DNA from: Escherichia phage vB_Eco_mar004NP2
Sequence record: NC_048205.1
Direction: 5' to 3' (one strand)
DNA length: 64,000 nt
Positions 59,633 through 64,000 of this stretch are shown here, one piece after another. Position 1 is the stretch's first letter. Each line of letters begins with the position of its first letter. A program made the translations under genes and the position numbers. Below the pieces are notes generated by a model. The model saw only the letters and a program-made list of their open reading frames with translations, was not told the DNA's origin and did no database searches.

Positions 59633-60523
59633 TTATACCAAATCTTTAAGCGATTCAGCAACTAAAATTTCAATACGTTTTGCTAACATATCAATTTCAT
59701 CTTTGTTTAAATCACCTGGATCTTTGCCTTCAGGTAGGAGAAAGTTAGCAACTACAGGTGTTAAACGCGTTTTTGTACGAATTAGCTTAGCCAATGCTTG
59801 TGCAGCTTTATTACCAGAAGCATCATTATCTAGTAAGATAACAACAACTTTTACACCAGCAATAATATAAGGACTGAACTTATCTGCAATGTTATCCGAA
59901 GTAAACTGATGTGTACCAAAGCAGCAAGAAGCATAGTCTATACCATTATCCTCTAGGTTCAGCATATCAAAGATACCTTCAACTAGAATAAGAACTGGAG
60001 TATTATATCGTACAGGGAAAATCGGTGGTGAAACTTGTTTTGGTTTTACTAAGTATTTAGGAGGGGCAGAACTGTTTATAGAACGACCCAAAAATAGGAT
60101 ATTGCGTCCAACAGCATCTGTGATTGGGAATACAATTCTGCCTTCCCAGTCTGCTTGGTGTTGGAAAGCAAAATATTTCTTCAAGGTCTTAGAACTTATA
60201 CCTCGGAAATCACCTTCGAAAAGGTAAGCAGATTCAGGAATTGCAAGATTCGTAGATCCATTCCTAATCTCTGAAATCTTTTTACGTACCTGCGATAGTC
60301 TTGGAGACTGTCGGTACTGAGTCTCATTAAAATAATGGTAAATGCTCGGTATACCTTTACCGAAGCCACAACTCAAGCAGTGCATAATACCTGTTTCAGG
60401 GTCAATACGCAAACTTGGGTGTTTATCGTCATGATCTGGATTGAGACAACAGATGAGGATGTCCCCACCTGTGTCTTTATATTCAATGCCTTTCAGATCA
60501 AGTAGTTCTGTTATTCTACTCAT
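59633..60523 (-). CDS. DNA primase (zinc-binding plus TOPRIM)
   Basis: CCLNPDHDDKHPS..HCLSCG zinc motif; VILLDNDASG TOPRIM-like. Confidence 0.75.
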   Translation of the reverse strand: MSRITELLDLKGIEYKDTGGDILICCLNPDHDDKHPSLRIDPETGIMHCLSCGFGKGIPSIYHYFNETQYRQSPRLSQVRKKISEIRNGSTNLAIPESAYLFEGDFRGISSKTLKKYFAFQHQADWEGRIVFPITDAVGRNILFLGRSINSSAPPKYLVKPKQVSPPIFPVRYNTPVLILVEGIFDMLNLEDNGIDYASCCFGTHQFTSDNIADKFSPYIIAGVKVVVILLDNDASGNKAAQALAKLIRTKTRLTPVVANFLLPEGKDPGDLNKDEIDMLAKRIEILVAESLKDLV

Positions 60524-61992
60524 ATATCGCTGGCCTGTTCACCTGTTGAATTTTCAGCTTTGTCTTTCTTAGCACGTTTAGATTGAGCCGGCTTATCCTT
60601 CTCAATAGGGATAACGAACTCAGCTTCCATTTGAGATATATCTTCCATTGCTAGGTTGGTAGTGTTATCCATCCGCAGGGTTTCCCAGTTCATTTTAGGC
60701 ATAAACTTCACGCTATCAGAAGAACGAGTCTTAACGAAGTCAAACATAATAGCACCTTGACCATTATCAGCTTTTGCAGCATTAAGATTAGCAGCCATGT
60801 CTGCAGAATCAAGAATCCCCTTTGACATACGTGTTCTACCATCTTGATCGATCTGGTAAGGAGCTACACCAGCCACGTTATGTTTCTGGCAGATGGATTT
60901 GAAAGACGAGCTAACAACCATCTGTTCTTTCCAGTCATACATATCAATGGTTTTAGAGTCTGGAAGTCTGGTTTGGTTAATATAGTCCAGTAAAGCTACT
61001 GTAACTTTATCCCCATATCTAGCAACTAATTTATTTAATTCTACATCAACTGTTGTAATAGACAGCTCAGGGTCATAAACAATAATCATAGGAGTATGTA
61101 GCTCATACCCTTCTATTAGCTTACTCTCCATATCGTAGAAATCACTCATCTTAGCCATTGTGTACTGTTTAACGAAGTTGTCGAAAAGCTCTTCACCACC
61201 ATTAAACATTCTAGCTCTAGTTCTGGCTAATCTCAACAGAGCTGCACCTTCTAGAGTATTATTACGCATTGCTAGTGCTGATACACCAGCTAACATGGCT
61301 AGATTACGTCTAAATACTTCATGTTCTTTCATCTCAATTGAGAAGTATGGAGCAATATCTCCATTCAAATATTGCTGAACCTGTATGTTTGAACAGATAA
61401 TGGATTTACCAGTACCACGCCAACCACCAAGCAGTAACGTTTCTGTGCGAGCTAAACCAATTTGAGCGTCGAACTCATTACAAATACCAAGAGCGATTAA
61501 ATTCAGTTTGGTATCTTCTTCTCTCTGGAAAATACGCATGTTATCTGCGTTGAATACTTTTCCAGTATTCGTTACTTTCTCTTCTAATTTTAAGTGAAGG
61601 GAGGCAACTCGGTTGAGAATTTCTCCCTGATCCAGCATTGTTAAATCTTGAAGCACGTCTGTTTCTAGAAGCTTCAGGAATAAATCCTGTGTATATTCAG
61701 CCTCTAGGACTTCAAGTGCCTGTTCCATGCTCACTTCTGGAATTTGAGTGTTAGCTAAGACGACTAGAGCTTGAGAAAGGCGGGCGTTTCTATTAGCTTC
61801 AAGCATAAGTGCGTCAATGGACGGCATTGTGTTATATTTTTTATAATAATTCTGGACGGCTTGGTAAATTGAGGAGAAAGCGTCATTAAAATGATCTTTA
61901 TGCAGTTTTGAGAATGTTTCCAATGCTATTTGCTTCTGTTCGGAAGCTAGAAGCATCTTCAACACTACAGCTTGCACGTTAAACAAGGTCAT
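60520..61992 (-). CDS. replicative helicase/RecA-fold ATPase (DnaB-like)
   Basis: Walker A GGWRGTGKS; start trimmed to MTLFNV with RBS AAAGGAGA. Confidence 0.65.
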   Translation of the reverse strand: MTLFNVQAVVLKMLLASEQKQIALETFSKLHKDHFNDAFSSIYQAVQNYYKKYNTMPSIDALMLEANRNARLSQALVVLANTQIPEVSMEQALEVLEAEYTQDLFLKLLETDVLQDLTMLDQGEILNRVASLHLKLEEKVTNTGKVFNADNMRIFQREEDTKLNLIALGICNEFDAQIGLARTETLLLGGWRGTGKSIICSNIQVQQYLNGDIAPYFSIEMKEHEVFRRNLAMLAGVSALAMRNNTLEGAALLRLARTRARMFNGGEELFDNFVKQYTMAKMSDFYDMESKLIEGYELHTPMIIVYDPELSITTVDVELNKLVARYGDKVTVALLDYINQTRLPDSKTIDMYDWKEQMVVSSSFKSICQKHNVAGVAPYQIDQDGRTRMSKGILDSADMAANLNAAKADNGQGAIMFDFVKTRSSDSVKFMPKMNWETLRMDNTTNLAMEDISQMEAEFVIPIEKDKPAQSKRAKKDKAENSTGEQASDI

Positions 61993-62027
61993 TCTCCTTT
62001 GCACGCTTTCGTGCCTTCTAAATGCAA

Positions 62028-62058
62028 AAAGGGGAAGGAGCATAGCCCCCTCCCCTTA
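62028..62058 (-). terminator. terminator-like hairpin on minus strand
   Basis: GGGGAAGGAG..CCCCCTCCCC imperfect stem, followed on minus strand by TTTTTGC. Confidence 0.45.
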
Positions 62059-62074
62059 GGTTTAATTTACCAGA

Positions 62075-62842
62075 TTATTCAGCAGCCGCAGCTTTTGCAT
62101 CCAGTTTAGCACGCTTAGCGGCACCATCATAGTCCTTAGCAACCAGACCACGACGAGACAGCATAGATTTAACACCACGCTCAGACTTGCCAGTTTTCTC
62201 AGCGATCTCAGCAACAGTCATGTTAACCAGATCCAGACCCTCTAACAGATCTTCACGAGTTTTAGCACTTGAGGTTTCCTGTACCGGCATAGCCGCGATA
62301 CGACCTTCACGAAGCAGGCTCAGAGCTTTACCACGGATCTGCTTGATATTACGACCGAAGTGAGCAGCGATAGCTTCAATAGTAGCACCAGCAACAACCT
62401 GATTAACAAAATCAGTTTCTTCATCCGGAGTGAAGGAACGAACAGCAGCAGCTTTTTCGGTTGGCTTAACAGAAGCGGTCATTTCCAGACTCAGAATCTT
62501 ACCCTGTACCTGTTTAGCACCGAACTGACCACCAGCTACAGCAGCAGCGATTTCAGCATAGGTATACTGACCAGCATGAGCGTTCAGGAAATCAACCAGT
62601 TCAGCTTCCTGCTCAGGAGTCCACGGGGATTTCTGTACTTCGTTAGCTTTTTGTACTTCAAAACCTTCTTTACGCAGCTTAGAGCCAACAGAGCGAGCGG
62701 TAACGTCTTTGCCAGTTTCAGCAGCCAGTTCAGCAGCGATAGCAGCTACTTGTTCTTGAGAGATTACAGCAACACCCAGAGCAGTGGCTTTTGCTTTCAG
62801 AGACTCGGTTACACCTTCTACGTTCCAGTTCAGTTTAGACAT
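62075..62842 (-). CDS. putative DNA-binding protein, Ala/Lys-rich (255 aa)
   Basis: ORF; helix-rich; function positional guess. Confidence 0.5.
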   Translation of the reverse strand: MSKLNWNVEGVTESLKAKATALGVAVISQEQVAAIAAELAAETGKDVTARSVGSKLRKEGFEVQKANEVQKSPWTPEQEAELVDFLNAHAGQYTYAEIAAAVAGGQFGAKQVQGKILSLEMTASVKPTEKAAAVRSFTPDEETDFVNQVVAGATIEAIAAHFGRNIKQIRGKALSLLREGRIAAMPVQETSSAKTREDLLEGLDLVNMTVAEIAEKTGKSERGVKSMLSRRGLVAKDYDGAAKRAKLDAKAAAAE

Positions 62843-63617
62843 TATTATTTTTCTCCAATAGTTCTTTAATCGACAGGATTTCTATCCCATTCGTTTCGGC
62901 TTTCTTATAAGATGAGGAAGAACGTTTTGATTCATCCTCACAGATTAGGTATTTGACGTCTTTAGTAACTGATTTCTTAACCGTATACCCTAGACCTTCT
63001 AAATAGTTTGTTGCATCCGTTCGATTTGCAAAATCTTGCAAAGATCCGGTAATACATACCGCGATTCCATTTGGCTGGGCAACTAATTCATCTGTAATGA
63101 TGACGTCAGCTTTAGTGCCCTTAATACCAGTTGAAAATTTCCACGGTAGTTCGATAACATCCTTGCCTTGTGGGGAATTTAGCCAGGCTTTGTAATTTTC
63201 TCCAGCCTTGCCGTCAGCCTTCACATCATGGAAGCTAGTGCAATTTTGGGATAATTTCTTTGCTGCAACCTCTCCAATTAGAGGGATTCCTAAAGAACCG
63301 AGAACTGAACCAAAGTCAATGTCTCCGCGAACTTTAGTATTTAATTCGCTAATTAACTTAGCGGCAACCTTGCTACCCACGGCTCTAACCAAATCTTCTT
63401 CGGTTAGGTAAAATAGTTCTGAAATCTTCGTCAGCTCCAGCTTCTCAATAGTTTTTGGGCCAAAGCCCTTTAACTTCATTTTTGAACAGAAGTTCTCAAT
63501 TAACTTACTTGATTGCGCTGGACAGTTGGACTTATTCCGACAGAATAATTGTCCGTTGACAAGATCTAGCTTAGAACCACAAGAGGGACATTGTGTTGGA
63601 ATTTCGATTTTCATCAA
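62835..63617 (-). CDS. NAD-dependent DNA ligase, C-terminal subunit (zinc finger, HhH, BRCT-like)
   Basis: N-terminal CPSCGS..C..C zinc motif aligns with LigA zinc finger; 260 aa. Confidence 0.6.
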   Translation of the reverse strand: MMKIEIPTQCPSCGSKLDLVNGQLFCRNKSNCPAQSSKLIENFCSKMKLKGFGPKTIEKLELTKISELFYLTEEDLVRAVGSKVAAKLISELNTKVRGDIDFGSVLGSLGIPLIGEVAAKKLSQNCTSFHDVKADGKAGENYKAWLNSPQGKDVIELPWKFSTGIKGTKADVIITDELVAQPNGIAVCITGSLQDFANRTDATNYLEGLGYTVKKSVTKDVKYLICEDESKRSSSSYKKAETNGIEILSIKELLEKNNNV

Positions 63618-63644
63618 ATTTCTTCCTTATCAATTTATATAAAT

Positions 63645-63673
63645 ATTATAGCAAGTATTTAAGCATTTAGCAA
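63645..63673 (-). promoter_or_regulatory. sigma70-type promoter TTGCTA-N17-TATAAT (minus strand)
   Basis: reverse complement read directly; between the two ligase ORFs. Confidence 0.55.
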
Positions 63674-63774
63674 CTACAATTTTAACTAACTTTGCTTACC
63701 CTCGCCATAACTTTCTATCCCTCAACTGAATGATAATAGTATATACCTAAGCGGCGAAAATGTCAATAACCACT

Positions 63775-64000
63775 TTATAATTCCGATATGGTAGATGGGT
63801 AGCAAAGGGTTATGTATTAATCGTATACTCGCTCTACTATACACGGGATTACACCACCAGCACGAATCACTCGAATCTGGCAACCGATCTCTAGATCGAG
63901 AGAGTTAATATAATCAACGTTATTAAGAGTCGCCTTAACAATTGTAGCATCATCAATAATTACCGGTTCGAAATAGCCAACTGGAGTTACTTTACCAGAA
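63775..64000 (-). CDS. NAD-dependent DNA ligase, N-terminal subunit (3' end only; 5' end beyond window)
   Basis: hand translation gives OB-domain segment [37 protein letters not shown], then 22 unrelated residues and a stop. Confidence 0.5.

Follow-up and report, generated by a model that had tools for sequence, protein, structure and literature searches.

Bacteriophage T5 encodes its NAD+-dependent DNA ligase in two pieces. The split was reported with the T5 genome (Wang et al., 2005, as cited in a passage of PMC1684257), and the ligA and ligB subunits have been listed for both T5 and phage Stitch (PMC3632103; PMC4319617). The T5 record NC_005859 annotates, in order, ligA (T5.116, YP_006944), the promoters P-K 28b and P-K 28a, ligB (T5.117, YP_006945) and D5, followed by the D6 helicase and primase genes. 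Here we describe the same genes, in the same order, in a 64,000-nucleotide (nt) stretch of Escherichia phage vB_Eco_mar004NP2 (NC_048205.1), referred to below as the window. The locus almost certainly encodes a two-subunit NAD+-dependent DNA ligase of a T5-like phage (Demerecviridae) that is made as two polypeptides. The split ligase is real, and it is already known, annotated and structurally characterised in T5-like phages. Little of it is therefore new: the split ligase entered the T5 annotation and the literature in 2005, hundreds of T5-like genomes carry the annotation, and solved structures of an ortholog are in the PDB. One observation that we did not find stated in the literature is the family-wide conservation of the position of a promoter pair between the two ligase genes.

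The closest structures are PDB entries 9hu3 and 9i5i, which list a 339-residue "DNA ligase (NAD(+))" chain together with a 248-residue "DNA ligase subunit B" chain. These match subunits A and B at E-values of 3e-103 and 1e-80. The matches run end to end, and the two-chain architecture and the chain ends are as in the T5-type enzyme. The proteins in these entries come from a different group of phages in the family. Chain B is 100% identical over its first 160 residues to its counterparts in Providencia phages vB_PreS_PR1 and PSTCR5, and the PSTCR5 subunit B is 55% identical to LigB of the window. The B chain is also 11 residues shorter, with the deletion located before the BRCT domain. Escherichia coli LigA (PDB 2owo, 671 residues) shares the domain order Ia, nucleotidyltransferase (NTase), OB, Zn, helix-hairpin-helix (HhH) and BRCT, as well as the KLDG motif and the zinc cysteines. 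LigA is a single chain, whereas the phage enzyme is two chains that together are ~90 residues shorter, with reductions in the Ia domain, the NTase loops and the HhH region. Full-length phage LigA proteins (phrog_3869) are encoded by Yersinia phage phiR1-37 (g267) and the jumbo Vibrio phage pir03 (ORF 275). They are likewise phage-encoded NAD+ ligases, but they are unsplit and ~27% identical to the enzyme described here. The two halves are collinear with the phrog_3869 profile, A at positions 9-381 and B at 388-654. The PHROGs database holds one family for each half, phrog_3359 and phrog_3498, with end-to-end matches at E-values of 7e-176 and 5e-137 (the latter for LigB, phrog_3498).

The window is assigned by nucleotide identity to a Tequintavirus (T5-like, Demerecviridae) genome. 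The 2-kb ligase region is 98.9% identical to that of Salmonella phage SPLA5b, and many Tequintavirus genomes match it at 98.4-98.9% identity. These genomes annotate both open reading frames (ORFs) as NAD-dependent DNA ligase subunits A and B. The differences from T5 are at strain level only: LigB is 97% identical in amino acid sequence, and the part of LigA inside the window is identical to the C-terminus of LigA in T5 and in phage BB1.

Both ligase pieces are on the minus strand (Table 1). The ligA frame enters from beyond the end of the window, is read from 63999 and belongs to a gene that continues past the window; full subunit A has 323 residues in T5 and BB1. The fragment at 63999..63820 matches the Pfam family DNA_ligase_OB (PF03120) at an E-value of 6e-18 (64.9 bits vs. 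a cut-off of 32.9, profile positions 14-71 of 79). For the region outside the window, the T5 and BB1 orthologs match the NTase domain PF01653 at an E-value of 2.7e-23. The KLDG adenylation motif of T5, BB1 and five other lineages pairs with K115-L-D-G of E. coli. All A subunits keep a domain Ia block, YY...SDEEYD, at their N-terminus; it corresponds to YLYH...PDAEYD of E. coli in the alignment. Y22, D32, Y35 and D36 of E. coli domain Ia are the nicotinamide mononucleotide-binding residues that give NAD+ specificity. Domain Ia is ~25 residues shorter in the phage A subunits than in E. coli LigA. By alignment, subunit A carries this shortened Ia, an NTase domain with the KLDG adenylation lysine, and an OB fold.

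The ligB protein begins MKIEIPTQCPSCGSKLDLVNGQLFCRNKSNCPAQ, and its start is five residues before PTQCP. There is an in-frame TTG one codon upstream of the ATG. Klebsiella phage Roth37 has TCA in place of this TTG, and thus the ATG is the conserved start. LigB aligns with E. coli LigA (PDB 2owo) at residues 402-529 and 585-666 (E-value 7.5e-11); the first of these segments pairs with LigB residues 3-122, which include the shortened, putative HhH region. The cysteines C9, C12, C25 and C31 align with C408, C411, C426 and C432 of E. coli and are invariant in all seven lineages compared. Toward the C-terminus, residues 183-254 match the BRCT domain PF00533 at an E-value of 8.9e-8 (32.7 bits vs. 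a cut-off of 21.3).

E. coli LigA was aligned with subunits A and B from T5, Klebsiella Roth37, Proteus phage 2 and three Vibrio lineages (Athena, D260 and 70E37-4), six lineages in all. The A/B junction maps to residues 398-400 of E. coli LigA, within the OB-to-Zn linker, and is at the same point in all sampled Demerecviridae genera. The phage linker is 5 or 6 residues shorter than that of E. coli LigA. Across the seven lineages, A ends 7-9 residues after (A/S)GG(V/I)IP, and B starts 2-5 residues before P-x-x-C-P. An earlier, sequence-only reading of this DNA, which gave no strand and for which most of the upstream gene lay outside the window, had proposed that an NAD-ligase gene is interrupted after the OB fold, ahead of the zinc finger. 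The PF03120 match upstream, and the LigA alignment and BRCT domain downstream, bear this out. Of the two alternatives that it then offered, the first, that the enzyme is made as two polypeptides, agrees with the ligA/ligB annotation in T5 and relatives, with more than 430 near-identical genomes, with the distant genera and with PDB 9hu3/9i5i. Two of the checks that it named, alignment with bacterial LigA and a search for the same split in relatives, came out in its favour. Its details needed correction. The upstream ORF does end after RAGGVIP, but the tail is not 22 unrelated residues. It is eight residues long (CIVERVYD) and is followed directly by the ligA stop; the residues after RAGGVIP are shared by all relatives (pattern P[CRK]I[VI][EG]...) and have their aligned counterpart in VIPQVVNVV of LigA. 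Similarly, the second ORF was said to begin exactly at PTQCPSCGS, which is five residues too late.

The canonical single-polypeptide architecture is not found at this locus, where a stop, a 202-nt spacer and a new start interrupt the ligase. The same split is present in Tequintavirus, in Klebsiella phages, in Novosibvirus (Proteus) and in Ermolyevavirinae (three Vibrio lineages), with 47-73% amino acid identity to T5. The KLDG motif, the domain Ia YY...D-x-x-YD block and the four zinc cysteines are kept in every aligned lineage. For comparisons with unsaturated synonymous sites, the ratio of nonsynonymous to synonymous substitution rates (dN/dS) is 0.02-0.16. Both halves of the ligase are under purifying selection. 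We found no fused or unsplit close relative among the 120 best LigB matches in a collection of 5.8 billion proteins. All 120, down to 49% identity, are free-standing proteins and none exceeds 263 residues; 118 are 247-263 residues long and two are partial (214 and 190 residues). In the phage collection, identity drops from 44% in the split Vibrio phages straight to below 30% in the unsplit ligases of unrelated phages. The split is a known variation of the T5 group.

The non-coding spacer between the ligA stop and the ligB ATG is 202 nt long (63615-63816, minus strand), rather than the ~150 bp given by the sequence-only reading. It is base-for-base identical in the window, T5 and BB1. The same reading placed one consensus promoter in the split. 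A promoter is indeed there, but the scan found two sites, with 11/12 and 10/12 consensus matches (Table 1). Because the spacer is identical to that of T5, both sites correspond to the annotated T5 early promoters, the distal one to P-K 28b and the proximal one to P-K 28a. The spacer is not leftover sequence. In the 1980s the Bujard laboratory characterised a set of strong early promoters of T5, to which the P28 promoters belong. The predicted P-K 28a start would lie ~24 nt upstream of the ATG of ligB. Scanning the window with a pattern for the proximal-promoter motif did no better than chance and missed the site itself by a 1-nt offset, and the scan is uninformative. An 8-codon ORF (MARVSKVS) after P-K 28b was dropped as a candidate, as it is not conserved in Klebsiella phage Roth37. 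In a distant BLASTN search, the 202-nt spacer matched 2-5 places per T5-like genome. The multiple matches fit other early promoters in the same genome sharing sequence with P-K 28a and P-K 28b.

The promoter pair is conserved well beyond the T5-like phages. The hexamers of the distal promoter are kept in the Klebsiella, Proteus and Vibrio relatives, and the proximal TTGnTATAATATT does not vary among six lineages. In the ~190 nt before ligB, the hexamers (ATTGAC, TATA[CA]T, TTGC and TTGnTATAATATT) account for almost all invariant columns. Position is conserved as well. Across six Demerecviridae lineages, 122-126 nt separate the end of the distal -10 from the downstream ligB start codon, and 29-31 nt separate the end of the proximal extended -10 from this codon. 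The last ~190 nt before ligB share one layout whatever the distance between the two genes. That distance is 199-202 nt in the T5-like and Klebsiella phages and rises to 344 nt in Proteus phage 2; in the three Vibrio phages it is 443, 769 and, for Athena, 1048 nt (intervals compared in the relatives: L003 2302-2500, L004 2157-2500, L005, which is Athena, 1453-2500, L006 1726-2494 and L007 2052-2494). The longer gaps hold small ORFs, all sited upstream of the promoter cassette. Since the distance from the cassette to ligB is constant, the extra genes were inserted between the ligA stop and the cassette. One of them, Athena gp57 (L005 1784-2344), is a DprA-like recombination-mediator gene (phrog_768, E-value 6e-49). 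None of the gap ORFs of the Proteus and Vibrio phages matches a homing endonuclease that could be a trace of the splitting, and all but gp57 are of unknown function. The position of the promoter pair is conserved and the ligA-ligB distance is not, which suggests that the boundary between the ligase halves is a conserved transcription-unit boundary.

An ancestral split through inserted DNA would be a reasonable origin for this arrangement. A more specific possibility is that the promoter cassette itself inserted into the linker between OB and Zn in an ancestral phage ligA and set up a transcription-unit boundary within the enzyme. Fission and promoter pair would then have arisen in one ancient event and been kept in all Demerecviridae to tune the level or timing of B (with D5) relative to A. 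The conserved position of the pair is an observation, made in six lineages that have reached saturation at synonymous sites; its cause and any regulatory role are speculative, and we consider the scenario as a whole rather unlikely. If it is true, a one-event fission would let the phage tune nick sealing, which may matter as the packaged genome carries site-specific nicks. The split may give a regulatory advantage, or it may be no more than a tolerated fission at a flexible linker.

The same promoter data could be read as a sign that subunit B has an added role, e.g., in nick sensing or in replisome recruitment via BRCT. It would then be made in excess of A from its own promoters, with ligase activity set by the A:B ratio or by timing. 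The pair at a fixed distance from ligB in all six lineages, while the rest of the spacer changes, would fit such a role, as would translational coupling of ligB to D5. However, the promoters may simply serve D5 and the downstream genes. In addition, B always adjoins A, as expected of an obligate partner. We regard an added role for B as improbable.

A stop codon after the OB fold and non-coding DNA between the halves are also what a pseudogene would show, i.e., an intact ligA broken by mutation with both pieces now decaying. Decay is hard to reconcile with the same break in every sampled lineage, down to 47% amino acid identity, with the low dN/dS and with the retention of all catalytic and zinc-binding residues. 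Furthermore, ligB has its own Shine-Dalgarno sequence, ATG and promoters, and a solved structure with both chains exists. There is hardly any chance that the ligase is a pseudogene. Alternatively, translational bypassing, a group I intron or protein trans-splicing by a split intein could rejoin the two ORFs into one polypeptide. Introns, inteins and homing endonucleases are frequent in phage replication genes, and several HNH endonuclease genes are nearby in T5. At this locus, however, Rfam gave no match in 62000-64000 at E-values up to 1, and no Rfam family reached the gathering score anywhere in the 64-kb window. The ends of A and B together cover all but 5-6 residues of the LigA linker, which leaves no room for intein halves. 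Splicing and trans-splicing are thus very unlikely. Rejoining in any form also sits poorly with a spacer that ranges from 199 to 1048 nt and holds unrelated ORFs in other genera, and with the PDB entries, in which A and B are separate chains. An assembly or sequencing artefact that hides a contiguous gene, for which nothing speaks beyond the general possibility raised in the sequence-only reading, has a negligible probability given that 436 independent phage records carry at least 80% of the 2-kb region in one piece with the arrangement unchanged and that 515 records cover at least 80% of the spacer; the other ground for doubt raised there, a lack of LigA homology, is excluded by the Pfam and 2owo matches.

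The reading that we prefer is a ligase that works as two chains. By analogy with known LigA biochemistry, subunit A would adenylate itself with NAD+ to give a lysyl-AMP intermediate. According to a passage of PMC1684257, a LigN fragment reduced to the Ia, adenylation and OB domains is still able to form the enzyme-adenylate. In the proposed division of labour, subunit B would supply Zn, HhH and BRCT, the DNA-binding half of the clamp. The A-B complex would then encircle and seal the nick like the single-chain LigA clamp, and sealing would join Okazaki fragments and nicks during T5 replication. Evidence for a nick-sealing, NAD+-using complex of A with B is indirect, namely the presence of both chains in 9hu3/9i5i. 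As for expression, the scan found no terminator-like site between ligA and ligB, and ligB is therefore probably also read from ligA transcripts. P-K 28b and P-K 28a would start a ligB-D5 unit, so that ligB would be transcribed together with D5 both by read-through from ligA and from its own promoters. With these two sources, the amount of subunit B may differ from that of A. Natural multidomain replication enzymes that work as two chains cut at a domain linker are of general interest, and a two-chain ligase could be useful for ligase engineering and for studying how the LigA clamp assembles on DNA.

Several points weigh against this reading. The Pfam match to the HhH region is below threshold (HHH_2, 24.5 bits vs. 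a cut-off of 27). The analysis of the N-terminal 263 residues of subunit A, which fall beyond the end of the window, draws on near-identical relatives only. The identity of the promoters comes from the T5 annotation, and their start sites are predictions. We found no biochemical data on the T5 proteins themselves in the searchable literature, and no paper there describing 9hu3 or 9i5i; the association of A with B thus rests on the shared PDB entries and the "subunit" naming.

Table 1. Features of the split ligase region, in window coordinates.
Feature	Position	Strand	Description and basis
ligA 3' end	63817..64000	-	Last 60 codons of the OB fold and stop TAA (63819-63817); PF03120 match; T5.116 annotation
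Distal promoter (T5 P-K 28b)	63738..63766	-	TTGACA-17-TATACT; 11/12 consensus matches; predicted start near 63731
Proximal promoter (T5 P-K 28a)	63645..63673	-	TTGCTA-17-TATAAT; extended -10 TGcTATAAT; 10/12 consensus matches plus TG; predicted start near 63638
Shine-Dalgarno sequence	63622..63628	-	AAGGAAG, 7 nt before the ligB ATG; read from the sequence
ligB (subunit B)	62835..63614	-	259 residues; ATG 63614, stop 62835; Cys4 zinc finger, shortened putative HhH region, BRCT
D5 DNA-binding protein gene	62075..62842	-	ORF list; annotated D5 in BB1 and T5
Intrinsic terminator-like hairpin	62029..62057	-	13-bp stem followed by a T run, after D5; scan; BB1 terminator annotated at the same place

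The genes next to the ligase are also shared within the family. The order ligA, ligB, D5, DnaB-like helicase and primase is common to the window, BB1, SPLA5b, T5, Roth37, Proteus phage 2, Athena, D260 and 70E37-4. T5-like phages carry a tRNA cluster. We found no tRNA genes anywhere in the 64-kb window, and a T5-type tRNA cluster would thus lie outside it.

The stop of ligB and the ATG of D5 overlap by 8 nt (ATGTCTAA, 62835-62842, minus strand), which places D5 in the same transcription unit as ligB. The stop/start overlap also suggests that the two genes are translationally coupled. In the T5 annotation (NC_005859), D5 is described as a DNA-binding factor in replication and late transcription. 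It also gives a match to Sigma70_r4_2 (E-value 1.1e-6). The ligB-D5 unit probably ends at the strong hairpin that follows D5.

The genes beyond the hairpin differ somewhat from those of T5. The helicase (D6) and primase genes overlap by 4 nt in the window (59633-62043, minus strand), whereas T5 has the HNH endonuclease gene hegJ (T5.120) between them. The homing endonuclease is thus missing from this phage. At 507 residues, the longest helicase ORF (ATG 62043) begins within the terminator-like hairpin. Annotations of the helicase start vary among relatives, giving proteins of 488 residues in BB1, 502 in T5 and 507 in SPLA5b. A TTG at ~61986, preceded by AAGGAG, is a more plausible candidate for the helicase start (61986-62057, minus strand).

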